Positions 9,893-59,350 of a DNA stretch of 64,000 nt are shown piece after piece. Origin of the DNA: Vermamoeba vermiformis (Eukaryota). Position 1 is the stretch's first letter; each line of letters starts with the position of its first letter. Where the stretch lies: positions 62,001 through 126,000 of the forward strand of contig JBEWZL010000119.1 of the NCBI GenBank assembly GCA_045837725.1, read 5' to 3'. The translations under genes were made by a program, and so were the position numbers. The notes under the pieces were generated by a model. That model ran no database searches. It saw only the letters and a program-made list of their open reading frames with translations, and was not told the DNA's origin.

Positions 9893-12638
9893 ATGAGCTT
9901 AGACGTCAATACACAGGCACAAATGCAAGACGAAAGTTACGCAGATCCGTTTGGTCTGACTCATGTCGAGTATACTGCAGACGGTAATTATCGAGGCGCA
10001 ATAATTTTTAATAAATTATTTTATCGTTGTTTTTGTAAAAATCAGGATTAAATTTCTTTTCAAAACACGATCCGATCAGATTCAGATCCACAAGTCTTTC
10101 AAAATTTGTGGCTAATTCAATTAAATTAGAAATATTTTACGCGTATACGCATTTTCAAAATATAACACATTGCTTGCAGGAGGGTTGGCGACAGATCAAC
10201 TGCTCGATCACACCGCGAATGGTGCCGCACCGAACGGGCACGTGGCTGGTGACAGCACCGCGCTGGAATTCAGTGAACAGAGCAAATCTGAGAGCGAGAT
10301 TGACAAGTTGATGCGCGCACTGCAACTCAACCGCGACTACCAGGCCTATTTGCGCGAACAACTGCGCGTGCTCGAACAGGCTCAGCTGCGCAATCGAGAG
10401 CTGCAGCGCGCAGTGAGCGAGACACTGATGAAACAGGCCTGTCAACCTGTCAAACCGAGTCACGTGATTGCGGGGGCTGTCAAGAGCAAAGCCTCCAAGA
10501 GCAAGAGCGGCATCAGATATTTTGTGGACGAGCTCGGCAATGTAAGCTATTTTTAGCATCGATTGCCTTATTTAGTAATGTACTGATCACGTGCCAGATG
10601 CCACCAGACAACGAAGACGGCGCACGACGCAAAGCACAGCTGGCCAAGATGCCCATGTACCACAAGCCCAAGCGATGTATGTCCTAATTAGGCAAGTGCA
10701 TGTACGACAGCTGACACGTGTCAAACAGGGACCCCCGCGGAGTTGAAGAGTCTAGCGAAGGGTGTGCGGCAACAGAACCAACAGCTGCTCGTGAACCAGT
10801 TGTACGACGAGTGCGCGGACAAATCGATCGACGAGTTCAATGCAGATCTGGAGAAGATCAAAACACTGAGCGACCGAGAGCTCGAAGAGAACCTCGAGGG
10901 CATTGATTGGGACCTCGTGGCCAAGACCTGCTGTCCCGATCGCTCGGGCGAGGACTGTCGCATCAAGTGGCTGGCGACCAATCCGCTCGTGAACAAGAGT
11001 GCGTGGCTGCACTGCGCATTGAACGAGACTAACGCGCTGTTCTATATGCAGGTCCGTGGTCCAAAGACGAAGACAAGAAGTTGCTGCAGCTCGCCACCAC
11101 GCACGAGGCTACACACTGGGACCGTGTGGCACAAGACCTGCACACGAACCGCACACCGACGCAGTGCTTGATGCGATATCAGCGCAGTCTCAATGTCAAA
11201 CTGCTCAAGAGGTACGGCTCTATACTTGTAGTGTTAGTGTGCTAATAATGGCAGCAAATGGACGGACGAAGAGGACAAGCTGCTCATGGACAGTGTGCGC
11301 AAGTACGGCGAAAAGAATTGGCAGCAAGGTACGTGATGCAGCTCTATTGCCTTATTTGGACATTGATTGACCATACCGCGCAGTGGCCAACTCACTGGAG
11401 AACCGCACTGGCCAGCAAGCACTGCACCGCTGGATGAAGACGCTCTCCCCGCACATCAAGCGCGGCAAGTGGGAGTGGAGCGAGGACATCAGACTCGCGC
11501 TCTCAGTGCAGGCCTACGGACAGAATCGACTCTGGAACAAATTGCACCGTCATGTGCCGCGCCGCACCGATGTGCAGTGTCGTGAGCGGTGGTGTACGTG
11601 TCTTTGCAAGTATTTCAGTGCACGTGACTGACAATGACCTAATTAGGCAATGTCCTCAATCCGGATCTGAACATGGGCCCGTGGACGCCAGAAGAAGACG
11701 AGAAGTTGTTGGAGTCGGTGGCACGGCACGGATTAGGCAAGTGGGCCCTGGTGGCGATCGATCTCTATCCGCGCACGGACAATCAGTGCTGGCGACGCTG
11801 GAAGACTGGGCGCAAAGATCAGCTGAGTGCCTATCGCAGGACCATTAAGAAGAAAGAACAGCTGCTCGTCAAGAACTTTGCAGGACGCGAGAAAGAGCGG
11901 CCCCATCACATTGACGTGGAGGACTTGGTGGACCTGTCGGAGGAGGGCAGCGAGGACGAGGACGAAGAGCTCGAGCTGAGTGACGACAGCGAGGAGTACA
12001 CTGCCAAAAATAGAAAACGAAAAGCGGCACCGCGCAGCACTCGTGCCAGCAAGCGACGCAAGACGAGCAAAGACATGGACTCGGAGCTGTCCGAGGCCGA
12101 GTTGAGTGACGAGATGACAGGTGACACCAGCAGTCACGCGACTGACACACCTGCACGCAAGACTAAGGCCAAGAGCTCCGCACCTGCAAAGACAAAAGCC
12201 AAGCCGCGCAGTGCACCTGCAAAGAAAGGTCGCAAAGGCAGTGCAGCGAGTGCCACCGCGGAGCCAGCCTCCGAGCCAGTGCTGATCGTGGACCGCGATG
12301 TGCTGATAGACGAGCAGGGTGAAGTGACGGACAGTGCCTTGCCTGTCGTGCTGCCCTCGCCCGTCACACTGCGTGCAGCATTCAAGCTGTTGACGACACT
12401 CGATCAGACAGCGCGGCCAGACACCGCGGCTGATGAGCGCAATCTCGATCTCGTGCTCGAACACGTGGACTCGCCTGACTTCAAACTGCTCGCGGCGTGG
12501 TTCAACAGTCTGTTCTTGTACCCCGCACTCATTGCCAAGGACTTGGGCTTCGTTGCCAATCCGCTGCACCACAGTCACGCTGCGAGTGGCGCGGTGAATA
12601 ACAACAACTGGAACATCAACAACTTGCACGGTAAATAA
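9893..12638 (+). CDS. SNAPC4: snRNA-activating protein complex subunit 4 (multi-Myb repeat)
   Basis: ALQLNRDYQAYL coiled coil, YFVDELGN..PPDNED, then Myb repeats (IDWDLVA, PWSKDED, KWTDEED, GKWEWSED, GPWTPEED) across several introns. Confidence 0.85.
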
Positions 12639-12801
12639 TAGGACTGGTGGATTGGATGCTGAATGGGAGCCGTTGTGCAGTGCGTCAACGACAAGTTTCA
12701 GTGAATCAGTGCTTCATGAATGGCTGTGAATGTAGCCAGTGCAGGGTCAATAGAAGTAAACGAACTTGTTGTTATTGTATTTTAATTTGTCCTCGCTATA
12801 A

Positions 12802-14218
12802 TTACACACTAGTATCGCTGTTCTTGCTCGCAGTCTGCCACGAGTGTCTGACCACCAGTGAGGTCAGAGGTATGCGCTGGCCATCGTATCCGACGCGCAC
12901 GGAAATCTCCGGTCCGAGATTATCTTTCTCGACCGAGTCAATGACTTCTTGTGTCCACGTGTGACTCATGCCCAACCAAAATTGCCTTTTTAGGACGCAG
13001 TTCACTGATGAAGTCACGTGCTTGAGGCCAACACCAGTGTGACACGTGCTTGCCGCGCGGCAGCAGTGAGTCGACTACTGCTAGCTCCACTTCAGGTCCG
13101 TGCTGGTCACTGTTAGAGTGCCCTGGTTGATCAGAGTGCCCTGGTTGATCGCTGCTGTCACGTGACTGGGCCGACAGACCAATCAGCGCACGTGTCTCGG
13201 CACTCAGACCCACGCAGTCACTCATGTACAGCACTGCTCCGAACTTGTAGCCCGCGCAGTCACAGTTCGCACCGTGTTCCATGCTCTGTAATTGGTCAGT
13301 GCTATTGCCTAATTAGGAAAGTGACGTACGAAGGGCGTGATGGTCAGGCCTTCAATCTCAATCGGCGCGGTGTCGTACGTGCGGAAATCGAGCTGTGCCA
13401 CGAATGAACTGCCTGTAGCACGTGCTGTGTTTACCAAATAAGGAAATTTCTGTCGCATGGGCTCGAGGTCTTTGCCGCGCACATAAATAGGCAGCGAACC
13501 GCGCAGCACTCGTGTGTAGTCGCGCAGATCATCGAGCCCGAGTGCCTGGATGTGGCTGTTAGTCAATTGTGCTCAATGCCATGGATGTACTTACAGCATC
13601 AGCGTGGTCGTGGGTGATAATAACAGCATCTAATACGCGAATTTGATATTTAACGAGCCAAGTGAGCGCTGAATCCATGAATGTTTTGCCGCAGTCAATT
13701 AAAATATGTACGCGATAGTCTACGAGCTCATCGTCATCAGGCAGTGGTGTATCAATATCATTTGTCGTAGTGGAGGTGCTGCTCGCTGTATTATTGGTCG
13801 ATGCACCACTCGCAGTGGCGTCGGTTGATGGATTTGCTGGTTTTTGATAAAGAGTCTTTTCGTCTTCATGAGGACTTCTTATTTTACGTCTTATTTCGCC
13901 CTAATTTCATCGTTAATATTAATATTACTGCGTTGTAAGGTATTGAGAATTCAAAGACTGAGATCCGTTCGGAGAAATAACATGCACACGACCACGCACC
14001 TTAGTCTTCTTCGTATTAAATGCGATCATAGCCGATGTATTTCTGCGGCGATGAATGCTGTCGGGGCTGAATCTGGCTGCGTGACAAACTTCACAATGAA
14101 CACCGCCCGTCAAACAACTGAGACGAGGCACACCTTCAGAGGTACCTGAGCCTAATATAATCAGCTCGGGATTCAAATCAAAGGGTTCTATATTCACGGT
14201 CTTCGTAGTGTCTGTCAT
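12802..14218 (-). CDS. PhnP-like metallo-beta-lactamase hydrolase (eukaryotic THxHADA type); frame break near 12971
   Basis: LGSGTSEGVP, RRRNTS, ILIDCGKTF, ITHDHADA, GLDDLRD, EHG, YMSD, GMSH, VGYDG. The last two motifs lie in a different frame from PKKAILVG. Confidence 0.82.
13115..13150. repeat. perfect 18-bp tandem duplication inside the MBL CDS (DQPGHS x2)
   Basis: AGAGTGCCCTGGTTGATC at 13115-13132 and 13133-13150. Confidence 0.9.
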
Positions 14219-14320
14219 TGTGGGGAATTAAAGTCAAAAGCAAAAAAAATTAGTTTTATTTTTGATTTTCATCGCGCGAGCACGTATCACCGATTTCATA
14301 TCGATAGTGCGAATAGTGAT

Positions 14321-16583
14321 ATGGCTACACCAATCGAAGAAGTCGTGCACCAACTCCCTGGTGAGATCCCCGAAGGTTGTTCGGTGATCGAAGAGGGTCA
14401 AGCCAAAGTGTTGAAGCGCGGCAATGAAGTGTTTTACAATCCAGTGCAAGAGTTCAATCGCGATCTCTCTATTATGTCCATTAAGCTCTTCATTCAAATG
14501 CTGCGTGAAGAAGAAGGTAATTTGATAATTAAATAACGAATAATTGCGAAAAAAATTAGAAAAAATTCAGGCTACTTTGATATGATGTTGAGAAGGGCAT
14601 ATTTAACTAATATAATATTTTTATGAACAGTACAAAAGGCAGAAAAAAAGAAGGCGAAGGATCCAAATGCGGTTGTGCAACACAGACCCATTCGTGTGCT
14701 TGAAGCATTGTCAGCGACAGGATTGCGATCGATCAGATATTACAAAGAGATCCCTGGCCTAGCTAATATCACTGCTAATGACATTGATCCCAACGCCGTC
14801 AAAACGATCGAGCGCAACATTTTGTTCAACGGATTGAACACGCAACAAATCACTCCTAACTGCGGCGATGCTAGGTAAGCTAGTCACACAATAATAAATG
14901 TAAACTAACGCAGTGCAGCATGGTGATGTACAAAGCCAAAGACCCGAAGCAGCGCTACACGATAGTAGATCTCGATCCGTACGGTTCACCGGCTGATTTC
15001 CTCGATTCAGCCGTGCAGTCAGTCGAGGACGGCGGACTCTTGGCTGTCACGTGCACTGATCTCGGTGTGCTCTGCGGCAATCACGGTGAGACATGCTTCG
15101 CCAAGTACGGCACGATGCCCATCAAAGGCGCGCGCTACTGTCACGAACAGGCCCTCAGAATCGCCCTGGCCAGCATTCAGCAGCACGCCTCGCGCTACAA
15201 GCGGTACATTGTGCCCCTCGTCTCCATCTACGTAGACTTCTACGTGCGCATGTTTGTGCGCGTGTACACCTCGCCGCAAGAGGTCAAACAGGCCGGTGCG
15301 AAAGTGTCGCACGTGTATCAGTGCACGCAATGTGACTCGTATCACTTGGCACCCCTGGCCAAGATCACTGGCGAGGCTGGGCACCTCAAATTTGCCCCAG
15401 GCAGCGGTCCCCCAGTGAACATGACCTGCGCCGAGTGCAACAGCGTGTTCAAGATTGGTGGACCAGTGTGGAGCGAGCCCATTCACAACGCTGAATTCTT
15501 GTCGCGTGCCTTGCAACACTTGGGCACGGAGGAGAGCAAGCAGATGTACAAGACACACAAGCGCATCTTTGGTCTGTTGAGTGTGGCCAGTGAAGAGTTG
15601 CCCGATGTGCCCTTCTTCTACGTCGTGTCTTCGCTCGCCAACACATTGCGCCTCTCTTGTCCGCCCATCATGCCGCTCAGATCCGCACTCGTCAATGCAG
15701 GCTATCGTGTCTCGCTCAGTCACTGCGAGCCGAACAGTCTCAAAACTAACGCACCGACCTCATTTATTTGGGACATGATGCGCGCTTGGAATTTGAAACA
15801 AGATCAAGAACATCAAGTCAAACTCGACAAGTTGAGTGACACTTCGCCTGCAAAGTTGATCTTGTCCAAGGCTCCGACTGCAAATATTGACTTCACTGCG
15901 AACAAAGACGCCGAGAGCAAGTCACAGAACTTGCCGAGATATTTGCCCAATCCTAGTAAGTACATTTGATGCTACTCTACGACAGTACGGCGATTGACAC
16001 GTGTCATTTTCAGCCAAGGACTGGGGTCCAGGTGTGCGTGCAGGCAGCAAGCGCGACTTTGACACGATGAGCATGCAAGAGATCATTGACAAGCGACGCA
16101 CAGCGAGTCAAGAGAAACAGAACAAGAAGCGCAAGTTGATGGAACAAGGCATTTGCGTCAAATTCCAAAAGGTATCGTTCAGTACTATGCCTCGATCAAA
16201 CGATCGCACGTTTAATTCTAACTATAGAAATAACAATATCTCCAATAACCCTTTTAATCGCAACAATAATAATTCACTTTTTTCAAAAACACCTCGATCG
16301 CAATTCAAAATACACCATAATAGTAATCATTTAAATATGACAACTCGAATATTATCTGCGGTCAAAACGTTTGTAAAATTTTTGTGAGGTGCTAATTGAA
16401 ATAAACATAAATATCCTTGTATAATACACAGCTATTAATACTTTGTAATTAAAGGGATATTGTAAAAACGGTGACAAATGTAAATATAAACACATCCTCG
16501 GCACTGCAGAGACAGCCAACACTAACAACACTAACACAGACAATAATAATAATCCACCTGCCCCTGATGCCATGGTCGAATAA
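14321..16583 (+). CDS. TRM1: tRNA (guanine26-N2)-dimethyltransferase with C-terminal CCCH zinc finger
   Basis: VFYNPVQEFNRDLS, LEALSATGLRSIRY, DLDPYGS, CHEQALRI, PNP..WGP. Intron 16172-16454 joins CVKFQK|GYCKNGDKCKYKH; stop 16581-83. Confidence 0.93.
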
Positions 16584-16648
16584 CTCCGATAATAAACTTA
16601 CTTATTAACAGCACGAGTGTTGTTATAATTATTATTGGCTATACAATT

Positions 16649-17876
16649 TTATTCCGAGTCAGACTCCGAGGACGAGGCAGTGAACATGACCGAGTTGACA
16701 GTCATCGACAATTGACCGCCCTTGTAGCTGCCCTTCTTCTTCTTGGTCTTCTCGTGTCTGAATCTGTCGCCGTGCAAGTTGCGCAAGTCTTTGTCCGCCT
16801 TGAGACCATAGTCCTCACCACCCTTGGCGAGGTACGAGTTGTCAAACAGACGCGAGTCTTTGCCGTCAATCTTCACCTTCTCGGGGTCAATGCGCTTGAA
16901 CGGTGTCTTGGGCGTGGTGGGCTGTGAGCCAGTCTTCTGCTTCTTGGCCGAGTGTTCGCTGTTCTCGGACTCAGCTTCGCGCTTTCGCTTCTTGGAGCTC
17001 TCGTCCTTGGCGGGGGTCTTGGGCTGCTCGTCCTCGCTGTCACTGTCAGAGCTCGAGGATGAAGAGGACTCTAATTTCTTCTTCTTGGCTGACTCGGTCT
17101 TGGCGGGTTCAGCTTTCTTCTCAGGAGTCTTAGTCTCGGCCTTCTTGGCAGGCTTGGCTTCAGACTCGCTGTCGGAGTCGGATGAGCTGGAAGACGAGGC
17201 AAAAGTCTTCTTAGTAGGAGTTTTGTTGTCGGTCTTAGTGTTCTTCTCGGGGGTCTTAGTTTCAGTCTTCTTGGCAGGCTCAACTTTCTTCGGCTTCTCG
17301 TCTTCGCTGTCAGAGTCTGATGAGCTGGACGAAGAAGAGCTGCTGGCGTCCTACTAAGGATTAGAAATTATTGTTTACATTATTATTTTATATTATTACC
17401 TTCTTTGACTTTCCGTTTGTTTCTGGTTTTTTACTGCGGTAAACACGATCTGGTTAGTTGCGATCGAGATCGAAAAGCTTCCACATGGATGACTTACGCA
17501 GCGTTAGCCTTCAAAGAATTTTTGTAGATATCCATGAGGGATTGAGCGCCGTCGGTCTTCTTCAATTTGGCCTAGAAAAAGAGATCAGCGATCAGATCGT
17601 TAAATAAAAAATAGAAACTAATTAATATAATTTCCAATGAACGCGTATATATTCAAATTAATTTTGCGCTGAGAAGTTTGAAAAGCAACGAATTAAATAA
17701 ATCAAATCCCGGCTGCATCTACTTGCGATCTGTAACGGTTAAGTGTCTTCGACGGCAATAAAACTACTTACGGCATCGACTTCCTTTTTGAATGCCTTGA
17801 GAGTCTTTTTCAAACCATTTTCTGACAAGAAGTCGTGAATCAAAGGATACAAAGCGGATGGGGTGACGTCAGCCAT
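16649..17876 (-). CDS. SRP40: SRP40/Nopp140 nucleolar phosphoprotein
   Basis: N-terminal LisH-like LYPLIHDFLSENGLKKT, alternating S/D/E and K/P blocks, C-terminal SRP40 domain PFKRID...YGLKADKDL...FRHEKTKKKKGSYKGG. Confidence 0.92.
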
Positions 17877-17998
17877 TTCTTGTGCTATTTATAAAGAATG
17901 AATAGTTGTTTCGTTAATCACTGAGCTGCTACAAAGCTTGTTGTGGTTGTTTGTTGTCAGTCGGCCGAACAAAAAGAGCACGCGTGAAATATCAATTT

Positions 17999-18229
17999 CT
18001 AGCGCACCACAGCGGTCTCCGTAAGGTTATTTTTGGTAAACCTGTGGTCCTGCTGGCTCTTAAATGTAGTGGAACGATAAGAATCTCTCGTGCACGTTGC
18101 GCCAGGTGTTACGGGCACAAGTCAAACTCGTTGAATCCTTGCTAAGGATTTGAGAACGCGTACGTTCGCTTGCATCCTAAGTTCTCGGCGCCAAGCAATA
18201 CGGTGTGTTCTACACTGTGTATCACAATC
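17999..18229 (+). ncRNA. putative structured RNA of unknown class
   Basis: Several hand-folded helices (ACCACAG/CTGTGGT, AATCCTT/AAGGATT, GAGAAC/GTTCTC, GCGCC/GGCGC) in a GC-rich island of an AT-rich spacer. Confidence 0.35.
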
Positions 18230-18552
18230 TAATTGAATCGGATTGAATAGAATTGATTCGCGCAGAAAAGATTTAGCTCCGTGAATGAAAGACACGAACA
18301 CTCGTCTTTAGAACAGATATTGATACCTTTGACTTGATACACAAGTTGATGACTATTTAACTCATTGGCTGTTAATTTCTAAACGTAAGAAGCTGGAACT
18401 GCCAAGTGGCGCCTTTTTTTGGTCAAATCCAGTGGAAACTCGAAAATATTGATATCATTGCTTTATTCTACTAGGATAATTATTATACGACGCAATTTAT
18501 TCAAATTAATTTTAATTGGACAATTTAACAATATTTTGATAGCCAGATCGTG

Positions 18553-21370
18553 ATGCCGCACTCAATGGATGCAAGCATCATCCTCCAAACGGAGTTGCTT
18601 TGTGGTAAGTGTCTCAAATTAATCATGAGGCCAATTTATTACTTCGATCTCTCGCGGATCTTTCCTAGCATTTAACATAAACACTGTTACTGATGTAATT
18701 ATTAGTGCCTACTCAATGGCTGTTCGTTGATCTAACCAGGGATCATCGAGTTAAGGACTGGATCTCTCCACTTGATAAAATCAATGCGATCGACCACTTA
18801 ACATTCCAACACGACGAGTTGAGCTCTAAAAATATGAAAGAACTAAAAAAACAGTACAAAGCTTCACGTCCTAATTTCTTGGAACAATTTGGAGCACTTT
18901 ACGACAAGGGGTAGGTGGATCAGGTCTTGCAGTGCTCGAGTGACAGCTACTCACTTCTATTCTGCAGCATTAAGGACGGGACACGTGGCAGACTAGCAGT
19001 GTGGTTCATCGGCGATGCAGATGACGAGTGGAGTGCGTTCTTGTTGAATGAACTGCCTCTCGACCTCGCCAATTACTGCTACTGGAAGCAGAAGTACTTG
19101 CCTGTCGTGGTGCGTGTGGGCATTGGCAGTCAAACAGCGACCAACGACTTGCTAAGGGCCCTGAGCTCGCAGTACTTTGACATGCCTGCATTCGACGTCA
19201 AGTACGTGCTATTCTTGTGTGACATGTGTGACATGCCCGTGCTAACATCAAACAGATTCGAGACCAAACCCGATCACGCGCTCGGAGTGTACAGCAATCC
19301 GTATGACACGTGCTGCACGGTGTCTGACGATCAGCCCATCAAAGAGCTGTTGAGCAAGTTGATCCCATTGCACTTGGTCGAGACACAATTTGCCAAGCGA
19401 TACAGGTACTAGTAATTCGACCAGTGCAATGAAATCTAATTCGATTGCAGGAATGACACGCTGGGCAGTGGAGGTCAGCTGTACGTGGTGGAAGAGACAC
19501 TGGTCAGTTCAGTCTCGCACTTCCGTCGCATTGATTGGCTCGTCCTCGCGCAGGTCAGCATGACATACTTCATTCAATATGTATGTTTTATTAACTATTA
19601 ATAGGTGGAATATTGTCCTCGCTTGTGGCAGTTAGACAAACAAAATATCTTCGAGGAATTCCATCACCTGCTCGATTATCGTCATTGGAAGGGCCGTTTC
19701 AAGCAATTGAGTGACGAAGACACTGACTACAGCAAACTCATCGACTTGTCACGCATTTCAGCCGAGGATACGATGATTCGTCGCCGACAACGTGAAAAGA
19801 ATTGGGAGTCAGTACTGACCGACGATAAGAAGCGACACGTGACACATGACTTGACACTGCTCGAAGACAACATGTTCCGCATCACTAGCACCGACATGCA
19901 TTCGTTCAAAGAGTTGATCTTGTGTCTGCAGCGCCAAACACGCTGGACTGAAAGTTTGAAGTGGCTCGACATCATTCAAAAGCGCAAGAAGTATCCACAC
20001 GTGTTCATCAAATTGAAGGGTGTGTCGCTGCTGAAGTCAGGTGATGAAACTGAGGGCCGCAAGTGGTTAGCCAAATATCGCTCTGCCATTTTGAATGAAT
20101 ACGAAGACAGCGTGTTGTTAGGCTCACCAATGAGTGTTGCGGATCAAGCAGCGGTAAGTGCCATGAACTATTTTAGTATCGCACTGCTAACGCCATTCAT
20201 TGCAGACTTACAGTGAAGTCGCAGCAGTGGCCCTGGTCGAAGGTGACAGCAATGTGGCTCTCGAATATGCCGTCAAAGCACTGCAACTGAACAAAAAACT
20301 CGTGCAAGCGTACAAAACATTGACTTGGGCCTCGTGCGAGTCTGGAAAGGGAGACTGGAGCTCTGAAGAGTTAGTGTTCTCATTTTTCATGAGCTACTTG
20401 AAGAATCCGACCATGGGCGAGCAGTACTACACCAAAGTCACCGAAAATTTCCCGAACAATCCGCACTACAGATATTACTACGCTATTTTCTTGTCATTAG
20501 TGTTGAATGACCGTGAACGTGCGGAAGAAATGTTTCAAGAGAGTTTGCGAGCATTTGGCGATCATCCCCGAGTACTCGAGAGGTACGTTTGACTAACTAA
20601 TTGTTACAGCTTAATTAACATATATTAATCACTCTTACAGCTATGCGACGTTTTTATTCCAGAAAGGTCACAATGACTCAGCGGAAATTGAGCGCTATTA
20701 TCGCAAGGCGCTGAAGGCAGATCCAGACAACTTAATCATCACGGCAAATATGGCAGCATTTCTATTAGCGGCTGATCCCAAAAAGAACATGGAAGAAGGG
20801 CTCACCATGCTCGATCGGGTGTTATTCAGCAGCGGAATTCTTGAGCGAGAGCCGGATCTGGCACTTGAATGCTGGTTCTACGCACTCATTTACAAGCCTC
20901 TCGACAGATATTATGAATCTCTGAAAGGAGTCAAATTAGCCTATCGTACTGGAGCGCGTGCCCATGGTAAGTATCTCTGGCACGTGTCAACATGTCAAAA
21001 CTAACCTTAGTGCAGGTTGGGACTTTTCTATGCACTTCGCCTATGCTGAACGCACCAAACATCCTGACTTGCATTGGATCAAAATCCTCGCTGATGTGAT
21101 TACAAATCAGGTAAGACTTTCGTTAATTTGACACGTGTCACTAATTTGACCTGCTTGTAGTGCACCATTGAGCGGTTACAAGGCTGGACTGCATGGTGGA
21201 CAGCAAAGACAGACCGAATCTTCGAGTCCAAGAGTACTAGCGCACTATCTACCAGCACGAGTACTACTGCTGCACCAGCTACATCCACGGTGAACAAGAA
21301 GAAAGTGTTCCCCACTGCTTATTCACGCCAAGCAAAACAAGCTAAACCGGCTGCTAAACCCGAACAGTAG
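18553..21370 (+). CDS. multi-exon TPR-containing protein (probably continues into 21400-22215)
   Basis: Helical repeats ALEYAVKALQLNKK, YYAIFLSLVLNDRERAEEMFQESL, YYRKALKADPDN; canonical introns. Confidence 0.7.
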
Positions 21371-21399
21371 TCGTCAATGATGAAAATAGGCGCGAGAAC

Positions 21400-22215
21400 A
21401 TGACAGCGAGCACGGGCACGGATGCTGGCGATGATGGCACGAGCACACCACCACTCTCCCCGACCACCAAGCAGTTGACTCAGACACTCGCGCGCAGATC
21501 TTCTTCAAACAACACGAACAATTCGATGCGCACTCCGCCTGGCTCACCACTCGCTTTCCGCTTACCATCGCCTGTGGCTAAAAAAGGAAGTGCAGAGCGT
21601 GCAGTCATGCGCTCTAAATCGAGTCTCGACTTCACTGTGGATCAGCTCGCGAATAACGACACGACTGGTCTGAAGTTAACTGCCTCCAAAGAGATCAGTG
21701 CATTTGATTTCTCGCCGCAAGTTGGTAAAGACTCGAAAAAACGAAAATTGAGCGAGTCAAGCGGAGATAACAAGGCCCCAAGAGATTCCACGACACGCGC
21801 CAGTAAAGTTGCCAAATATAGCAAAGATCAGAGCCCTTCAGAATCTCCTCGATCTGCTAGCTCTGCAGAGTCGCCTATGAAGTTAGACTTGTCTTCTATG
21901 GACTCTTCGACTTCTCCCTTGTCGCCGCGTAGATCTCCCCGCGCCAGGAAAACTGCAACGCGCGATCCATCGCCGTTTGCTTTCCCTGATGATCACCCGC
22001 CTGTTGCGCGTAAGCTGCCATTATCCCCTGGCAAGCCAGTCGCCGCCACTACTGTAAAGCGGAACAATGTCAAATTGGATCTCGTAAATGAGCCAGTACA
22101 CGCCAAGTTGGATTTGACAGCAACTGATAGTACAACACCAGTATCAAATGGCTTCAAACCAATACTTCCTAGCAGTCCACCAAAATCTGGCAAGGTCTAT
22201 TCTCGGCGCAAGTAA
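21400..22215 (+). CDS. S/P/K-rich disordered segment, likely the C-terminal tail of the TPR gene
   Basis: 271-codon ORF starting 30 nt after the upstream stop, leaving no room for a promoter; its frame is open back to 21358. Confidence 0.55.
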   Translation: MTASTGTDAGDDGTSTPPLSPTTKQLTQTLARRSSSNNTNNSMRTPPGSPLAFRLPSPVAKKGSAERAVMRSKSSLDFTVDQLANNDTTGLKLTASKEISAFDFSPQVGKDSKKRKLSESSGDNKAPRDSTTRASKVAKYSKDQSPSESPRSASSAESPMKLDLSSMDSSTSPLSPRRSPRARKTATRDPSPFAFPDDHPPVARKLPLSPGKPVAATTVKRNNVKLDLVNEPVHAKLDLTATDSTTPVSNGFKPILPSSPPKSGKVYSRRK

Positions 22216-22757
22216 GATCTTTCTTAAATAGAGCTTTGTTAATACTTTCAATTTTTTCTGCGTCTAAATCATGTAATATAAATGTTTATTTTAATTTTGG
22301 AAAAACCGTATCGCTGATGGCGTACTTTAACTAAAAAATCACCAAAATCTTAAACGAAATTAGCGTAAGAACAGATCTGACAGCAGATCTAAGGTGCGGA
22401 GCTGCGCACATTTATATTTTATTTGACTGAATCTAAAAGATTCATGCTTTACCAAACTTAGGCACTATTATTTTGGAAAAATTTTAATTCGCCCACGCAT
22501 TTTGCGCGAGATTCTTAAAACTCCCATAAACCGCTTCAATGTGCACAATTCACACGTGATCATGAGTGTTACTGATTGGTGGCGTTTAATTTTGGCTAAA
22601 TTTCTCGTGACTCACCCAATCAAGTGAGGCGATCACGTTTTTGCGTGTCATGTGCTAGGATGGGATAAATTGTTTTGAAAAAGATTCATTTTTTTATCCC
22701 CAGATCCAGTCATTACAACCCACAACTGGATTGTACATACTTCTAAAACACTTGTAA

Positions 22758-25700: not shown

Positions 25701-26870
25701 AATGGTGTCAACTACGTCATGCAAGACGCCTTTGTCACGATGAAGGGTCGCATGTCTGGTGTTGTCGCCAAGAGCTGGAAGATGACTGAGAGACTCACCA
25801 CCATCACTTGGGGTGCTCCTCGTCCTATCCCTTCGCAATACACTGCTGCCATTCGTCAAGCTCTGCAACAAGAGCAAGGTCTGACTCAAACAGCGCAAGA
25901 CACGTACTTTGGTGGCAAGAACCTCGCTGCCATGGGTCGATTGGCACTCATCGCTGACGAACTCGGCGAGACTGCCATTGCTAGTGGCATTCGCGGTCGC
26001 TTAAAGGCTTCCCTTGAGCGCTGGTTCACCAGTCAAACACCTGATCGCTTGGTGTATGATCGCACTTGGGGTGGTGTTATTTCATCCAACGGTATCAATG
26101 ACCGTGGCGCTGACTTTGGCTACGGTTGGTACAACGACGTACACTTCCACTTGGGCTATTTCGTCTACGCATCTGCTGTAGTCGCCAAGGAAGACTCGGC
26201 CTGGGCTGATCAATGGGCCCCTGCTGTCAACGACCTCGTTCGCTGCTTCGCCAATCCAGTACACGACGCCAACTTCCCCGTCACGCGCATGAAGGACTGG
26301 TATGCCGGCCACTCATGGGCTTCGGGTCTGTTCGAGTTCGGTGACGTCAAGAACCAAGAGTCATCGTCCGAGTCCATCAACGGCTACTACGGCCTCTATC
26401 TCTGGGGTCTGGCGCGCAACAACGCCAACTTGCGTGACCTCGGTCGGCTCATGCTCGCTCAAGAGATCCGTGCTACCAACAAGTACTGGCACATGGATGG
26501 TAAAAGCAACGAAATCTACGACCAAGTCTTCGCTGACAACGGCTGTGTTGGTATTCTCTGGGGTACTAAAGTCGACTTTGCTACTTGGTTCGGCGCTAAC
26601 CTCGAGTTCATCATGGGCATTCAAATGATGCCCTACACACCCATCAGCGAGGAGTACATGGTGCCTTCGTGGATCCAGACTGTCTATCCTCGACTCTCCA
26701 CCGCTCTCACACGCACTACGCCTCCTCTCGACGTCGGCTGGCGAGGCTTCATCTACATGGCTCAAGCTGTGATTGACAAGGCTACTGCTTGGAACAATGT
26801 CAACACCCTCACCGGTTACGACAACGGTAACAGCAAGACTAACACGCTCTATTGGGTCGCGACGCGTTAG
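22758..26870 (+). CDS. secreted endo-1,3-beta-glucanase (GH81) with two N-terminal Cys-motif/NIDO units and a P/T linker
   Basis: Signal peptide MTVYRLILLLAALLAVASA; 2x (FYPFG..GDD..GSNGLISFG..FIA..W.D..IYYR..TWF.VG..T[FW]Q.VL.TDG); GH81 motifs PYPTNSW, GSPYIT, DTYFGGK, YNDVHFHLGY, KNQESSSESIN. Confidence 0.9.
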
Positions 26871-27052
26871 ATCTGAACTGTCAATTCACGACTTACTCAT
26901 GTTTATAAATAGTGTACAAAGCGTTTTTTTCATTAAACAATTATTCAAAACACTTGTTGATTGTTCTGCTTGTCTAAACATGTGTTCAAAAAGTGGCTTT
27001 GCATCATGTCAACACCAGTTGGAAACCCACAAGAGCCTAAAAACAGTTTCAA

Positions 27053-28501: not shown

Positions 28502-28788
28502 TTGTTTTACGCTACACGGACGGATTGATCACACGAAACATCAGACAACAGATTTATTAGTAATTTTGTGCTAGTTACATTTGTAACGCTGTTGAATTGT
28601 TTGCTGAAAACAAGGGAAATTAAAGTCGCGAATGACCGTGCATTAGTACCACAAATAAACTGTGTTGTCTTCACCACCGCGCCCCACTTCTCTGAATAAG
28701 TAGACTGGTATATCTTCACCGGTGCACTGCCTCTTCTGAGCGGTACTGTAGCACACGCTCGCAAATGAATCGTTGACAGGCCCGATGA

Positions 28789-29621
28789 TCAAGTCACGTC
28801 ACGCAGATCAAATGTCAACAGTTCGCCTCGACTCAGTCCAGTCGTATCATCGATAAGTGGTTGTACTTCAGGTGCGTGATTGACACGTGTCAACAGCGTG
28901 TCATTGGGGTCACTCCAAACAGCTGCGGTGTCGTTCAAGCGCGCTTTCTTGTTGAGTTGTGAGCACGTGTTGATGTCTTCGAGCTCAGCCTGAGTGATGT
29001 TATTGTTGCTATATATACTGCTCGTAGTCTCTGTCGGCATGAGTTGACTGGATTCGCATTCAACGTGTTTGCGTTTGCGTATCTGTCTCGGCAGTACAGT
29101 AGTTGTGTGCGAGCTAATTATGTGGTCGTTCAAATTGTTTTCTTCTAATGGATACAAGCACTATAACAGTCAAAGAGTTAAGGCTTTAGAAAGTAAAACA
29201 AATCTGGTGTGGAATTGGCTAAGAAAAGGGATCTTGTTTAAAAGATACGATTGGAGTCTTCTTGCGTTAGATAACAACGCATTTGTTCTTCGGGTGAGTG
29301 GGGTCATCATCGTGATGCAGGTGCAGTACTTACCCGAATTTTACTTTAATTTAAAAAAAATATTCAAAAATTAATATTAATTTCTGACAATGCTAATAGC
29401 TTGAAAAATACAATAATAATAATAATGCATAATTTATGCGGCAGTATTAGAATAATTTTAAAGTGACGTACCTTGGAGCACAGCCAGATCAAATCAAGAT
29501 CAATATTTAGGTAAGTTGGCCGAAGCTTGCCCTTTTGACATTTCGGACAATAAGTCTCCTCTACAATTATATTCTGCATGCTGCTTGATGGGTCAGTACC
29601 TCCTCCATCGTACGTTGTCAT
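28789..29621 (-). CDS. hypothetical protein with N-terminal C4 zinc-ribbon-like motif
   Basis: CPKC...WLCSK|CLYPLE joined by a GT-AG intron (~29471-29161), followed by a low-complexity tail with KRK. Confidence 0.55.
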
Positions 29622-29933
29622 CTGAGCGAATAAATAACTTCAAATGAATTTTTTGGCAGCGTTACAACCGGACGGCCAGGGGTTAAATTTTTTTTTTTTC
29701 GTGGGTGGTTTTTTTTTGGAAAATTCCTTTTTTTTTCCCCCCATCAAAAAGGCCCTTGACAAGTCTGTACCAGTGCACATTCAGGAATACTAGGCGCCCT
29801 AAGAGCACGATTTGATATGCTTTACACGAAATAGCCCTTTGTTCTTTCAGAGCGCGTCGGTTCAGAAGTTCCAAATTTAGAACGTTGCCGTTTGTGGTTC
29901 CAGGCATAAAACAGCCGTTAAAGTTTTTCAACC

Positions 29934-34134: not shown

Positions 34135-34174
34135 AAAGTGTCACGACACAATTAAGCAATCGTATTTACTGCCA

Positions 34175-36373: not shown

Positions 36374-38485
36374 TTAAGCGTGGTGACCGTTGACTTTCGG
36401 CACGTCCTCCGAGCTCTGAATTTCGCGCAAAGACTTATCAATAATCTTAATGCACTCGTTCATTTCGCTCTCGGTGATCACCAAAGGCGGGGCCAGACGA
36501 ATGATGGTCTCGTGCGTGGGCTTGGCCAAGAGACCGTTCTTCTTCAAGGCAATGCACACGTCCCAAGCAGTGCGGGTGTATTCGGGGTCCATTTCAATCG
36601 CGCAGAACAGACCACGACCGCGCACAGACTTGATGAAGGGGAATTCTTCTTGGAACTTGCGCAGCGTGCTCAACAACTTGTTGCCCATTTGTTCAGCGCG
36701 CTCGACAAGCTTCTCTTGCTTGATCACTTCCAAGGCTGCAATGCCAACAGCCGAGGCGAGAGGATTGCCTCCGTAAGTACTTCCGTGCTCGCCTGTCATT
36801 GACACGTGTCAGTCAGTCACTTCCAACAATGTTTCACGAAGGCACTGTTACTCACCAGGTTGGATGCACAACATGATTTCAGCATCAGCCAAGATCGCAG
36901 AGAGAGGCAGGACTCCGCCTGAGATAGCCTTGCCCAGGACTACAATGTCCGGACGAATGCCTTCCCATTCAGAGGCCAACAATCTGCCCGTGCGACCGAG
37001 ACCAGTCTGGATCTCATCAGCAATGAACAAGACGTTGTGTTGTTTGCAGAGTTCGTAGCATTGCTTCAAGTAGCCCTCGTCGGGAATGACGACACCGGCC
37101 TCACCTTGAATAGGCTCCACTAAGAATCCGCACACTTTTTCTCCGTACTAAAAACACATCTGTCAGTTTCTGGTTCTGTGTGTGGCAATGCTAATAATAA
37201 GCAACACTAGTGTTGTAGCTTTACTTACTTGTTCCAAAGCAGTCTTGAGAGCTTCGACGTTGTTGTATTCAACTTGCACGACGCCAGGAATGAAGGGACC
37301 AAATCCATCGCGAGCAGAAGGATCGTTGCTCATGGAAATGATGGCCAAAGTACGGCCATGGAAGCAGCCCTTGCAGGCAATAATGACACCCTCGTATTGA
37401 GGGATTTTCTTCTTCATGTAGCCCCATTTACGTGCCAATTTGAGCGCAGTTTCAACAGCCTCAGCACCTCCGTTCATCGGCAACATCATGTCGTATCCAA
37501 AATACTCTGTGGCATACTATTAAATGAACAGTTGTTAGTTCAGAGTCTCCAGATTACATTGCAAAAGCGCGGCAAAAAAAGATTTGAGAATTGGTTGAGA
37601 TGTGAACGAAACGAAGATTCGATTGAAAAATATAAATTATTGGGTGAATTGGCTTATAATTAACTAACGATAAAATATAATATTAAATTAAAATTGTCAT
37701 GTTAAGGCCGCCGGGCCAAACGAAAATCCATCGCGAAGTCATCCAACCAACACAATTTATCTGTTTTGTGTTAATAAGGGCTTACCTTAGCAAAACGGGG
37801 GAACACCTCGTTATAGAATGCTCGGCTGCTCAAAGTAATGCGATCAGCTTGGTCTTTCAACGCGCCAATGATCTTTGGATGACAATGACCTACGCAATTA
37901 AAAAATTGTAAGAATAATGGTCTTAATATATTATGACGACCAATTTAACTATTAAGATAAATAAAAGAGTGCTATTACAATATTTGCAAAATCGTGGATT
38001 GTTCTAGATTCAGTGCTTGCAAGTATTAAAGTCGAAACGTCTGATATTACCTTGGTTCAAAGCAGAATAGGCACTGAGGAAGTCAAAGTAGTGCTTGCCC
38101 TCAGGATCCCACACATCAACTCCTATTTAACAAAGGGACACGATCAGAAATTATTCTTGAACCATAAAATATTGAATAATTTTATTTACCCTTGGCTTTG
38201 GCGAACACAACGGGAAGAGGATGGTAGCTGTTCATATAATAGCATTAGAAGCGAGTTCTAAACGTTGCAATAACAAAGAGTTTGGATTTCGTAAGAATGA
38301 TTTCACTGTTGCAAAGCGCAGCTGTAGACTTACTTATGGGCAGCGTGCTTCTCCTCCATATGAATTAACTGCTCACTGGGCAATGCTTTACCAGGGCAGT
38401 AGTCGGGCTGTTCTTCTTCGATGTCGTAGTGCACGGGACATCTGCTCTTTTCATTGGAGGTTAAAGTAACTACTACTTGCGACAT
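36374..38485 (-). CDS. OAT: ornithine aminotransferase
   Basis: [85 protein letters not shown]. Confidence 0.95.
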
Positions 38486-46400: not shown

Positions 46401-46814
46401 TCACTAGGCGACATTCGGCTGAAAGAACCCGTGACATTTGTGTCTGCTGAGCCTGAATACAACGAATATGTGTTGGGTCCTAACGACCAGTTCTTCTTAA
46501 TTGCCAGTGACGGCATTTGGGATGTCATGCACAATCAGGTACGTGGCAAGGTTTATTGACATTTTTTGACACTTAGCTAACTTTAATTTCATTCGCAGCA
46601 AGCAGTTGACATAGTGCGCAAGTGTCCTGACAAGTATTCAGCGAGCGAACAACTCGTGAACAAAGCGCTCAAGCTCGGCAGTCGCGACAACATCACCGCA
46701 CTGGTGGTGTGGCTGAGCTGGAACATGGAGTACGTCGAACCTGCGATGATGTCCAGTCCCGAGGCCTCTGTTGATTCTGACAGCGACAGCGGCGCGAAAG
46801 AAAAATCTCTGTAA
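43497..46814 (+). CDS. LRR-PP2C protein phosphatase
   Basis: About 6 LxxLxLxxN repeats; PP2C motifs QGLRPYMEDRY, FGVYDGHGG, DGSTA, GDTRAVL, DHKP, LAVSRSLGD, ASDGIWD, GSRDNIT. Confidence 0.88.
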
Positions 46815-47098: not shown

Positions 47099-48823
47099 CT
47101 ACAGTTTGGCAATGTCCACTTGCAATACAACGTTGTGCTCGATCATCCTCTGAATCTGATCCGCAGTGAAACCGTTCTCGACCAAAATATCGCGTGAGTG
47201 TTGACCCACTTTAGGCTGAGGCTTGACAACATTAGTGCCTGGTGTGCGTGACAGCTTGGGCGCTGGTGCTGGTGCCACTTCTTGTTTGGATTCACTGAAA
47301 GAACAAGTGACACGTGTCAGCCAAATGAAATTTTTGCAGTACTAATGGTCAGATCAGCTTACTTTGAAATCAATAACTTTCGTGCGACAGTGTTCGGGTG
47401 CTCATTAAAGTCGTGAATATCAACTACTGGCGCCACACACGCGTCACTGCCGTCAAAAATAGAAGTCCACTCCTCTTGTGTCTTGCTCGCAAATTTTTTC
47501 TTCAATTCGTTGCGCAGATCAGGCCACTTGCCACTATCAAATTGAGGCCAGTCTTCTAGATTAAATCCCAATAACTGCAATAATTAATTAATATTTTTCG
47601 AGGCAGATCCTACCGCCGAAACATACCTCCATCGCTTTGTTATAAAATTGCGGTTCTAACGAGCCAATTGACATGTATTTACCGTCCTGAGTCTGATATA
47701 CCTATACATATCATATTTAGTATTAATGTAATAATCAAAAGTTAATTTTACCTCGTAGAAAGGAGATCCACCGTCGAGCATGTTATTGCCACGTGAATCC
47801 GTCAAAACACCGTGGCTAATAGACCGATTAATATTATAGTAGTTATACCATACACTTACAATTTATGTTTGTATAAGAATGAGCCAATATACAGTACTCC
47901 ATCGACCATTGCATTGTCGATCACTTGACCTTTGCCAGATCTCGTTCTGAAATCATGAGGTGAGTATAGATAAGGTTAATTATGGTATGCATACCTTTCA
48001 AATAATGCCAATATAATACCGAAGGCGCATAATAAGCCTCCAGCGGCAAAATCAGCTAAAATATTGATCGGAAACATTGGTGGCTCGTTTGATCGACCAA
48101 GCATCTGAAATTGAATATAAAATGTAAATATAGCCAATAAATAATATGACGTTATGTAATTTACCGATAAAATGCCGGAAAGAGCCAAATAATTGATGTC
48201 GTGGCCTGCGATATTCGCGTAGGGACCTAAAATACGGATCAAGGCATTAGAATAGAGTATGATGGTAAATATGGGCACTAGATAGTATTTATATACCTGT
48301 TTGACCAAAGCCTGTCAATCTCGCGTAAATGAGTCGCGGATTTCGCTTGCAAAGTTCGTCAGGGCCTAATCCGTTCTTTTCCAACACACCAGGGCGGAAA
48401 GGGTCGATGAGTACGTCAGTCTATTATTAATATCGATTAGTTAAGTGCTTTTAAGCACAACCAAGCAAGATCAAGAACAGAGACATTTTTAGATCCGGAC
48501 TACGAACAATGAAGTCAAAAAAAATATTAATAATTAGCATAGTAATATTTTAAATATAATAGTCAATAAATACGCTCGATCTAATTTTGGTTCTGTCGTA
48601 CCGTTTCGATTAATTTGTAAATAATATTTCTGGCTTGTTGTTGCTTCAGATCCAATGCAATAGACCTCTTGCCACGTGACAATGTATCGTCATTGACTAG
48701 TCCTGCTGCTTGTGTTCTGTCTACTCGCACTACATCTGCTCCAAAATCGCTCAAAATCATTCCGCAAAAGGGACCTGGTGCTAAACCAGCGAATTCGAGA
48801 ACTTTAACGCCTTTAAGAGCCAT
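47099..48823 (-). CDS. AMACR: alpha-methylacyl-CoA racemase (CaiB/BaiF family) with C-terminal PTS1 -AKL
   Basis: [70 protein letters not shown]; ends DIAKL*. Confidence 0.93.
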
Positions 48824-50527: not shown

Positions 50528-50653
50528 ATCCTGCGTTGTTTTATTATTTGTCGTTCGAAATTTAGACGGTTTTTGAACTTCGCACTCGTTTGAAACAAAA
50601 ATTTCATTTTAAACTCATCTAATTCACAGAAGAACACTACTGTGGCTTAAATC

Positions 50654-52949
<2,296 letters not shown>

Positions 52950-57121: not shown

Positions 57122-57551
57122 GTAAAAGTAGTTTACTTGCATAAGGATGTGGATTTCCCGATCGTATTTTAAGCCATTGGAATTCTTGACCAAAGGAACA
57201 TCTGGGAGTCCGATCCAACTTCCAGGTTCTTTCCGCGATAGACTTTAACTAGAATAGCTTCGGCATATAGAACATTGAAGCGATTCCTTATGTTGTTAAT
57301 GACTTTGTCAAGACATCGTGACTTAACTGAGAAAAAATCATGACTTAACTCGACTAGCCGTTTTTTTTTGTCTTAGTTTTTATCTATTCACTTGGCGCGC
57401 AGATAGCCGCGAATATTTTGTCGCGATAACCTTTGTATATTTATGTTTATATTGTAATCATAGGCGTGGCCAAGCAGAGGATTCAGGTTTCCGATTCTGG
57501 CTTTGGTTTAATCTGATCAGTTTTTCTTTCCGATTGAAAAACTAAATTATA

Positions 57552-59350
57552 ATGACATCTTTAGGTAAGTATAAATAGAAAGTTATTGTTTTTACGCTTA
57601 AGATATTTTATTTTGCAAATTGAACTAAGCAACGATTTAATAGACATCCCGGCGAGCTTGCTTGCCTCAGATTTAACCGCTGAGAATGGTCCAGTGCAAA
57701 AAGTAAGTAAATAATTTTTATATATCGATTTTTCTCGTTTATTTGAGCTAAGGAACTAATCCAGAAACAGATCAAGGCATCGAAGGATGTTGGCAAAGAA
57801 AACGTGACCGTAGCAACGAAGCAAGAGTACAAAAAGCCTGCCGATCGAAAACGCAAGCTGCCATTACAAGACTCAGAAGCGCCGAGACCGCAAAAACGCG
57901 CCAAGATCGAGAAATCTGAGGAGATCCTCGCCGCCAAGCCAGATCCGCTCGCAGCCGATTTAAAAGCCGAACTTAAGGACTTATTATTCAAGTCTGATCT
58001 AAACCTACACTTAAGCACTGAAGATGCCAAGACTGAACTCGCGATCGATCCCGAGCTCTTGCAATCCCCAGACAAGTTTAAAACACCCGTCAAAGCTGAA
58101 ACACCTAGTAAAACTATTACACCAGTCAAGGCAGAGTCAACTCCGGTCAAAACAGAACCACATCCGTTTGATATTCAGCAAGGCATCGAAATATCTAAAA
58201 TCACCGAAGAATCTCGGCTATTTTTAGGCAATGCCGATGTGGCCAGTAATTCTGCATGGTACGTCTTAATTACAGAATAATATTTCTACCGATTACTAAC
58301 GCCATGTCTTTATTTAAATGCAGGTTATTATCAGCGAATGTAACGCACATTGTTAACGTGGCCTCAGAGGTCCCGAATTACTACGAGAAGATATTTTTTA
58401 ACGACGATGAATTCCAGTTTACGTACAGAAAGTAAGTTACGCGATACCCGAGTTGACACGTGTCACGTTGACTAATTGGATCTTGTTTAGGGAGCCATTT
58501 AATGATAGCGAACACGAAAATATAATGCCCAAGCTGCACGATTTAACAGATTTCATTAAGAAAGGCCTTGACGCAGGCAGTGTATTAGTGCACTGCAAGA
58601 TGGGTCAATCGAGATCTGTCAGCATTATTTACGCCTATTTAATTAAGCACGGAGGGTACGTACAGCGATATTGCCTTATTTGGAAATAACGGAGCCTAAT
58701 TTTCCTAATACAGAATGACACTACAGTTAGCGAAGAGATTTATCGAAGAGGAATTGAAAATTTTGACTAAATTGAACAATGGGTTTAAGAGGCAGTTGAT
58801 GGAGTTTGAAAAAGAAATTAGAAACGTGACTGAAGCCTCGCACGACTTTTTTGTGTTGCCCAAGCGGATCTCAACGCCGCCAGCGCAGTTCAGGACCCTC
58901 GATCACTTTGTAAGTGCCACTGACACGCTCTATATGATGCAATCTAACCATGTGAATCCCTAGTCACAGAAGAGCAGGAGTTTGAACAGCTCGCCTGCCA
59001 CGCCACAACGTCGAGTCAATTCAGCCTCACCACGCAAGACACCAACTGGACGCAAGACGAACTCGGCGCGCAAGGCCAAAGCCAACACGAACAAGTTGTT
59101 GCGTGCTGCAGTTGGTGTGCCGAGTGTGAAAGATATGCTCGAGCGACAGTTGCACCAAAATCCGTCAAGCACGCAGACGAGTAATAACAATAATGTGAAT
59201 AGTAGCGATATTAATAACAACAATAATAATGTGAATAGTACTAATTCAAAGAGCGATAGTGAAAGCTCGCATAGTGATAGTGAGTCTACGCCTAGCTTGC
59301 CTGAAGGTGTGCGGATCTCACTCAAACTTAGCGGTGTAAAATATAAATAA
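57552..59350 (+). CDS. dual-specificity protein phosphatase
   Basis: LFLGNADVA, VTHIVNVASE, PFNDSE, VLVHCKMGQSRS (HCx5R), NNGFKRQLMEFE. Confidence 0.9.

Follow-up and report, generated by a model that had tools for sequence, protein, structure and literature searches.

A recurrent 12-bp palindrome in small introns of Vermamoeba vermiformis that looks like a site for a dimeric DNA-binding protein

Introns of Giardia and Trichomonas carry an extended branch-point motif, ACTAACACACAG, that is universal in the genome, stands at a fixed distance from the AG and is not palindromic. Spreading introns with inverted repeats are known as introners from Amoebophrya (PMC7789003) and as stwintrons from Hypoxylaceae (PMC8469720); in the available text of these papers, similarity runs along the whole intron, with terminal inverted repeats of 8-20 nt or 45-55 nt and often direct repeats at the boundaries. 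On the DNA level, the TGIF1 homeodomain was crystallised on ATTGACAGCTGTCAAT, named as its canonical DNA in the accessible text of the report (PMC6158717), and the available part of PMC5449588 gives TGACAGGTGTCA as the motif of MEIS3 in high-throughput systematic evolution of ligands by exponential enrichment (HT-SELEX) and CGGCACGTGCCA/GACACGTGCC as the motif of HES5. Here we analysed a 64,000-nt stretch of Vermamoeba vermiformis DNA (GenBank assembly GCA_045837725.1, contig JBEWZL010000119.1, positions 62,001 to 126,000 of the forward strand; hereafter the window, to which all counts and coordinates below refer), in which the 12-bp palindrome TGACACGTGTCA recurs and looks like a binding site for a dimeric protein rather than a splicing signal.

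A first-pass annotation of the window had reported eight perfect copies of TGACACGTGTCA, and all eight were found where it had placed them. Expected counts under Markov models of orders 0 to 5 were 0.004, 0.007, 0.008, 0.02, 0.056 and 0.23, and dinucleotide-preserving shuffles yielded a mean of 0.01 copies, with none of 100 shuffles reaching eight, in agreement with the earlier estimate of well under one occurrence per 64 kb. Because the order-5 model already contains the abundance of CACGTG (69 copies, rank 5 among 6-mers), the abundance of words up to 6-mers fails to explain the 12-mer: lower-order k-mer bias predicts at most 0.23 copies against the eight present, and the recurrence is solid. 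Allowing C or G at both central bases (TGACASSTGTCA) raised the count to 11 against 0.03 expected, the three additional copies being TGACACCTGTCA at 1343 and 5916 and its reverse complement at 6929. The centre is thus CG in 8 of 11 copies and CC/GG in the other 3; a GC centre occurs in 0 of 11, and no further spacer dinucleotide was found between TGACA and TGTCA in the window. With up to two mismatches to TGACACGTGTCA, 28 copies were present against 3.3 expected. The 11 copies, followed by a one-mismatch copy from one of the same genes, are listed below with the strand of the host gene.

10712..10723, plus strand: perfect copy in the 52-nt intron 10677-10728 of a Myb/SNAPC4-like gene, where no branch-point candidate besides the CTGAC of the copy is well placed; the donor, a CCTAATTAGGCAA box, the palindrome, the 15 nt between box and palindrome and the 5 nt after it make up almost the whole intron.
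15995..16006, plus strand: perfect copy in the 58-nt intron 15956-16013 of TRM1; its TTGAC, 16 nt from the 3' end of the intron, is the sole branch-point candidate.
21129..21140, plus strand: perfect copy in the 50-nt intron 21111-21160 of a TPR-repeat gene, with CTAAT and TTGAC candidates downstream of the palindrome.
28881..28892, minus strand: perfect coding copy in a gene at about 28789-29640, 92 nt from the stop codon, reading LLTRVN in the open frame.
36800..36811, minus strand: perfect copy in the 63-nt last intron 36793-36855 of the ornithine aminotransferase (OAT) gene, ending 7 nt before the exon, with an identical CTGAC 4 nt upstream.
47308..47319, minus strand: perfect copy that supplies, as CTGAC, the well-placed branch-point candidate of the 68-nt intron 47295-47362 in a CoA-transferase III (AMACR-like) gene.
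52134..52145, plus strand: perfect copy in the 98-nt intron 52114-52211 of an ADP-dependent glucokinase-like gene, 21 nt into the intron and 66 nt from its 3' end, remote from the branch region.
58454..58465, plus strand: perfect copy in the 59-nt intron 58432-58490 of a dual-specificity phosphatase gene, 23 nt into the intron, with GACTAAT downstream.
1343..1354, minus strand: centre variant, in sense TGACAGGTGTCA, in the 65-nt intron 1335-1399 of a WD40 gene; its TTGAC is the sole branch-point candidate, and a CACGTG lies 2 nt upstream.
5916..5927, plus strand: centre variant TGACACCTGTCA in the coding tail of a kinesin gene, reading LTPVK.
6929..6940, minus strand: centre variant, in sense TGACACCTGTCA, in the coding tail of an SNF2-family helicase gene, reading VTPVN.
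20978..20989, plus strand: one-mismatch copy TGGCACGTGTCA in intron 20967-21015 of the same TPR-repeat gene, the intron before 21111-21160.

The 90 nt on either side of the perfect copies revealed no relationship among them, and the longest extensions common to copies were of 14-16 nt, in single pairs only; given these unrelated flanks, the palindrome is a motif and not a repeat family. A slight preference for T at position -1 was the sole common feature of the flanks. When the 20 imperfect genic copies were oriented by the strand of their gene, 18 mismatches fell in positions 1-6 and 17 in positions 7-12, clustering at the mirrored pairs 3/10 and 6/7, and no asymmetry between sense and antisense was found in their positions.

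All 11 copies fit TGACA-NN-TGTCA and in this resemble TALE dimer sites, which are 12-bp inverted TGACA repeats with a 2-bp spacer. The MEIS3 sequence TGACAGGTGTCA, as given in the available part of PMC5449588, matches the variant at 6929 letter for letter, and its reverse complement gives those at 1343 and 5916; the faint AT/T preference 5' of TGACA agrees with the TGIF1 probe as it appears in the accessible text of PMC6158717. Unlike in TALE sites, the CG centre dominates here and makes TGACAC half-sites; the GC centre of TGIF is absent and the GG/CC centre of MEIS3 is confined to the 3 variants. Known TALE sites, moreover, come from animal in vitro selection and from promoter or enhancer contexts, whereas the palindrome lies in introns and coding sequence (CDS) and never in intergenic DNA. 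Pfam scans of the open reading frames of the window detected no homeodomain. The likeness to the E-box and G-box lies in the core, CACGTG in 8 copies and CACCTG/CAGGTG in 3, which symmetric 3-bp flanks complete to a 12-bp palindrome, and in the one-mismatch copies TGGCACGTGTCA and TGACACGTGGCA, which approach a HES-type flank. CACGTG with other flanks is common in the window, and only the TGA...TCA flank builds a recurrent 12-mer. Other HES sites and those of USF and MITF have flanks that differ from TGA...TCA. The same holds for the flank of HES5 in the available part of PMC5449588. Compared with the promoter or enhancer siting of E-boxes and G-boxes, a location in gene bodies is atypical.

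As in the Giardia and Trichomonas motif, a branch point and AC are fused into a longer motif near the 3' splice site in 5 of the 8 intronic copies; unlike it, the palindrome is carried by about 8% of predicted introns, stands at varying distances and also occurs in CDS. Introners share with it a recurrent sequence of inverted symmetry in many unrelated spliceosomal introns, but compared with what the available text of PMC7789003 and PMC8469720 describes, similarity here is limited to a central 12-mer of variable position, with no terminal repeats. The literature text that was available held no description of the 12-mer as a genomic motif; the exact string appeared in Ebola virus studies, apparently as oligonucleotide text, and none of the occurrences of the 10-mer string concerned introns or protists, as judged by titles and abstracts.

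To assign copies to introns, CDS and intergenic DNA, we built gene models with an ab initio exon-chaining finder (3-periodic Markov coding score, donor and acceptor matrices, intron length prior) and used them solely for the class fractions and the intron list. The models reproduce the RNA junctions 10999-11051, 14517-14630, 15956-16013, 23020-23159, 23373-23428 and 23681-23742 as well as the minus-strand introns 17351-17399, 17434-17497 and 17572-17771 seen in RNA. They are imperfect in that some genes are fused or lost and a minus-strand gene at about 12.7-14.2 kb was mis-called as plus-strand introns; the 5 false introns of that region were removed before intron statistics. Three model sets gave CDS 50-54%, introns 12-18% and intergenic DNA 28-38% of the window.

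In these models, 7 of the 8 perfect copies lie in GT..AG introns of 50-98 nt, two of them with RNA junction support. Given an intron fraction of 0.12-0.18, chance would put at least 7 of 8 in introns with a probability of 2e-6 to 4e-5, which bears out the earlier description of perfect copies in small introns of unrelated genes. The TRM1 intron is spliced out through the junction 15955->16014 in 55 reads (X21), 60 reads (X23) and one X6 contig; at the TPR gene, few reads (2 and 6) span 21109->21161. Abutting exon translations (...AEIMLCIQP, then the next exon) support the OAT intron, and on either side of the other introns the exons encode the expected domains (CoA_transf_3, ADP_PFK_GK, DSPc, Myb, TPR, WD40) or are open and continuous. 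The copy at 28881 had been described as coding, and its open minus-strand frame agrees with this, as do minus-strand (CT..AC) RNA junctions just upstream within the gene. Five partial copies reported as intronic, at about 315, 10588, 11621, 20981 and 46088, all fall in predicted introns. In total, 8 of the 11 TGACASSTGTCA copies are intronic, 3 coding and none intergenic (P of 0/11 intergenic = 0.005-0.026). All 3 coding copies use the frame xTG-ACA-CsT-GTC-Axx; in frame 1 both strands would read a TGA stop, and Asp-Thr-Cys would be needed in the third. With growing degeneracy the balance shifts to CDS: 7 intronic to 1 coding among perfect copies, 2 to 3 among one-mismatch copies, and 11-13 of the 15 two-mismatch copies in CDS. 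Of the 28 copies altogether, no more than 1 is intergenic (P = 3e-5 to 1e-3, a value that ignores the AT-richness of intergenic DNA). Such a gradient is expected of a motif favoured in gene bodies that is perfect solely where coding constraint is absent.

Two further recurrent sequences were seen. TTGCC(W6)GG has 14 copies against 0.13 expected, in both orientations relative to host genes, and 11 of the 14, mostly in introns, lie within the first 13.4 kb:

TTGCC(W6)GG copies: 602, 6228, 6302, 6761, 7871, 9207, 10683, 11347, 11638, 12982, 13305, 34791, 44802 and 58671.

Judged by its sequence, it resembles a CArG/MADS-like box. Four of its copies contain CCTAATTAGG, the yeast Mcm1 core, and CTTTCCTAATTAGG occurs twice in the window; the Mcm1 site (P-box) is given as TTTCCTAATTAGGAAA in the available text of PMC1779545. 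It differs from the Mcm1/SRF box in its flank, TTGCC/GGCAA here and not TTTCC/GGAAA, and in its location, for the most part introns and gene bodies of a small group of adjacent genes. At 8 places no more than 40 nt separate CACGTG from CC(W6)GG, where a circular-shift null predicts 2.3 (p = 0.0045):

CACGTG/CC(W6)GG pairs: 1507/1527, 6764/6785, 9078/9095, 10683/10715, 11621/11638, 12956-13015/12985 and 13419/13434.

Several pairs read CC(W6)GGCA(G/A)GTG, in which an E-box-like CANNTG abuts the box. The second is the 18-mer TTGACATTTTTTGACACT, identical at 32368-32385 and 46556-46573 in the unrelated introns 32359-32408 and 46539-46598, which consists of two TGACA half-sites (TGACAC) as a direct repeat 11 nt apart. 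As side observations, GCTATAAATAGCAC, a MEF2-like palindrome of the form CTA(W4)TAG, occurs twice (725 and 9183), ATCGAGCACATTC three times (7460, 32341 and 35154), and the 8-mer palindromes CAGATCTG and GATCGATC have 8 and 7 copies.

From the excess and symmetry of the palindrome, its distribution among introns, CDS and intergenic DNA and the absence of RNA structure described below, we infer with a probability of about 0.45 that it is a site, within transcription units, for a dimeric DNA-binding protein, which may be TALE-homeodomain-like or basic helix-loop-helix (bHLH)-like. TGACA-(CG, less often CC/GG)-TGTCA would be recognised on DNA by a symmetric dimer, each subunit reading a TGACAC half-site; candidates would be a TALE-type homeodomain pair, or a dimer of the bHLH or basic leucine zipper (bZIP) type on the CAC[C/G]TG core. 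The site would be maintained in the transcription units of about 1/3 of the genes in the window, with one strong copy per gene. Since short introns are without coding constraint, the full 12-mer can exist there, and exonic copies would persist solely in degenerate form or in the single frame that can be tolerated. Each half also holds YTGAC, a branch-point sequence the organism already uses, so that a copy 15-22 nt from the 3' splice site would double as a branch point; this overlap would be opportunistic and secondary, and not the reason for the motif. The normal splicing of the TRM1 intron with its palindrome counts in favour of a DNA-level site, as do the TGACAC direct repeat one helical turn apart and the proximity of CACGTG to CC(W6)GG, which may be analogous to composite regulatory modules. 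The first-pass annotation had proposed an intron-resident protein-binding code. Its protein-binding part is the best supported of the proposals, through symmetry, variation confined to the centre, the TGACA-N2-TGTCA form and the MADS-like boxes nearby; the restriction to introns did not hold, with 3 of 11 copies coding and degenerate copies mostly in CDS, and the element is better placed in gene bodies.

Several observations weigh against a dimer site. None of the 11 copies lies in intergenic or promoter DNA, the usual place for transcription-factor sites, and confinement to transcribed DNA would fit an RNA-level element equally well. No promoter association was seen, the distance to the nearest gene start being 0.5-2.5 kb and patternless. 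With 8 perfect copies to 5 with one mismatch, the motif is sharper than most transcription-factor motifs. In sense orientation, 10 of 11 copies have a pyrimidine at base -1, against 6 of 11 with A at the mirrored base +1; by our estimate this difference is not significant, and it is a weak hint of at most a slight sense-strand effect, which would fit use as a branch point. The enrichment of CACGTG and TGACA in CDS, given below, is not unique under a synonymous-shuffle null. Finally, a comparison of the last OAT exon with metagenomes yielded 572 relatives with a top identity of 62%, none of them close.

An element of the pre-mRNA is an unlikely alternative. It could take the form of an extended branch-point region, a small hairpin or a self-complementary RNA-RNA contact, modulating the splicing of particular, mostly 3'-proximal introns. 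That every copy lies in transcribed DNA suits it, as does the -1 pyrimidine, and in 5 of the 8 introns (10677, 15956, 36793, 47295 and 1335) no YTRAY other than the YTGAC of the motif, 15-22 nt from the 3' end, is well placed as a branch-point candidate. The earlier note had put this half at the branch point in four introns, which stands for 4 perfect-copy introns and extends to the variant at 1343, but the placement is inconsistent: in the other 3 of 8 introns the motif lies 29-66 nt from the 3' end, remote from the branch region, with a canonical CTAAT downstream (in introns 21111 and 58432 at 16 nt from the 3' end, the motif being 29-34 nt away). Motif starts range from 18 to 44 nt from the donor, and we estimate, without computing it, that random placement in such short introns would give about 40% overlap. 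The end of the palindrome had also been put 5-13 nt before the AG; these figures hold for the distance to the exon, and to the AG dinucleotide itself it is 3-11 nt. Partial copies repeat the combination of branch point and ACGTG (TTAAC-ACGTG at 46088, CTGAT-CACGTG at 10588), and a YUGAC followed by ACGUG might lengthen the duplex with U2 small nuclear RNA. In human and yeast U2, CAAGU stands 5' of GUAGUA, and the ACGUG of the intron would pair with that sequence with one mismatch; no U2 gene was found in the window. The right half, GTGTCA, however, has no role in such pairing, and other YTGAC/CTAAC branch points have no ACGUG extension. Many introns that lack the motif also have YTGAC as their likely branch point, so the overlap is real, yet neither universal nor needed to explain the palindrome. 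The 3 coding copies and the strand-symmetric tolerance of mismatches also speak against an RNA element. So does folding: the isolated 12-mer forms a 4-bp hairpin of -2.1 kcal/mol, and z-scores against mononucleotide shuffles show no excess in the 8 motif introns (mean +0.50, against +0.22 in 89 other short introns; Mann-Whitney p = 0.45). The palindrome is not self-paired in most predicted folds of these introns, the hairpin appearing in the minimum-free-energy fold of a few of the 8, and no Rfam family matched the window at gathering score. The variable position, low stability and p value leave the proposed branch-point hairpin without support despite the overlap in 5 of 8 intronic copies.

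A relic of mobile or templated insertion, either an introner-like core or a minimal inverted-repeat element made of two fused 6-nt termini, is improbable, and equally so its corollary that the element survives in introns or as an in-frame 4-codon insertion of 12 nt. Eight identical copies with few intermediates are typical of copy-and-paste, 12 nt is a multiple of three, all 3 coding copies share one stop-free frame in low-complexity protein tails, further 13-18 nt strings are common to unrelated introns, and the spreading introns of Amoebophrya and Hypoxylaceae, as far as the text available describes them, offer a precedent. Against this, flanks share nothing beyond the slight T at -1, the position within the intron varies, and there are no intergenic copies, although insertion would be best tolerated there. 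A soil-metagenome contig aligns over 10398-10827 with 0 gaps, so the 10712 copy shows no presence/absence polymorphism in that relative. Inspection of the 8 introns and the adjoining exon edges revealed neither terminal inverted repeats at intron ends nor target-site duplications, and with no common flank either, the suggested footprint of intron-generating insertions was not borne out.

That neutral word bias produced the motif is very improbable. In this explanation, codon context, mutation bias or biased gene conversion would inflate CACGTG and TGACA, and the 12-mer would be their overlap. Apart from the overall rank of CACGTG, it can draw on predicted CDS (29.4 kb), in which within-gene synonymous shuffling gave 33 CACGTG against 14.7 +/- 2.8 and 72 TGACA against about 34, placing them 3rd among scored 6-mers and 2nd among scored 5-mers. 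Many unrelated words also exceeded z > 5, a sign of strong context biases in the genome; the shuffle null is therefore too simple and is given little weight, and we dropped it as decisive evidence of selection on the two words. The bias would need to act across 12 nt and chiefly in introns. A Markov model of all 6-mers predicts 0.23 copies against 8, and strict palindromic symmetry with centre-only variation is unexpected under it. The genome-wide motif drive suggested in the first-pass annotation fared similarly: the two words are in excess in CDS against a weak null, but no model of order 5 or less predicts the 12-mer.

Also unlikely is that the palindrome serves as a chromosome-level address of gene bodies, with a dimeric protein at a single strong site in the 3' portion of roughly one gene in three. 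Relative to our own gene spans, 10 of the 11 copies lie in the 3' half of their gene, at a mean relative position of 0.73 (sign test p = 0.006, one-sided; Monte Carlo on the mean p = 0.003; both post hoc and from 64 kb). Copies often occupy the last intron or a C-terminal tail; the convergent kinesin and SNF2 genes, for instance, carry one coding variant each, 319 and 530 nt from their stops. Gaps of 4.8-10.5 kb separate the perfect copies, with a coefficient of variation (CV) of 0.28, again post hoc; uniform placement yields a minimum gap of at least 4826 with a probability of 0.0026. Redrawing the 7 intronic copies among the 119 predicted introns raises this to 0.015, and the CV test under that null gives 0.09. 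The address sites would thus be fairly evenly spaced, at 5-10 kb, and often beside convergent gene ends; by hand count 9 of 11 motif genes have convergent ends, against 18 of 28 genes overall, a difference that is not significant. The bound protein could serve as a roadblock or in termination between packed convergent genes, in antisense initiation, in nucleosome or cohesin phasing or in replication initiation, and small introns would be protected slots for sites in a compact genome, a DNA-level function of introns.

The window is gene-dense and eukaryotic, with GT..AG introns of 44-130 nt, a donor consensus of GTAAGT/GTACGT and branch-point-like CTAAC, CTAAT or YTGAC. Pfam identified genes for kinesin, SNF2 helicase, Myb (SNAPC4-like), TRM1, SRP40, a TPR protein, a GH81 glucanase with a NIDO domain, an aspartyl protease, two WD40 proteins, OAT, an LRR protein, CoA-transferase III (AMACR-like), ADP-dependent glucokinase and a dual-specificity phosphatase. 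The closest foreign TRM1 proteins are about 50% identical, from which the lineage appears poorly sampled. RNA runs under the same species label are about 90-95% identical to the window (reads at 99+/95-99/90-95% identity: 19/209/911 and 26/253/1015 in two runs) and support junctions, not intron sequence. Over window positions 10001-30000 these runs are mostly 90-95% identical, and contigs from a run of another study at least 99%; the species label thus seems to span clearly diverged strains. GC content is about 0.47-0.51 in positions 1-27000 and falls to about 0.37-0.45 in 27000-64000, and intergenic DNA is rich in AT-only palindromes such as TATTAATA. Relative to synonymous shuffles, predicted CDS avoids GTAAG (2 against 21.7) and GGTAAG (0 against 8.7), which is consistent with selection against cryptic donor sites.

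If the palindrome were an ordinary regulon motif, it would be a routine cis-element in an unusual location. Its 12 bp are sharp enough to serve as bait for the predicted binding protein, and the branch-point overlap offers a natural test of how a single sequence can be read both as RNA by the spliceosome and as DNA by a dimeric protein. If it is a protein-binding site, a compact protist genome houses DNA elements in introns of 50-100 nt, which would bear on the old question of why short introns persist.

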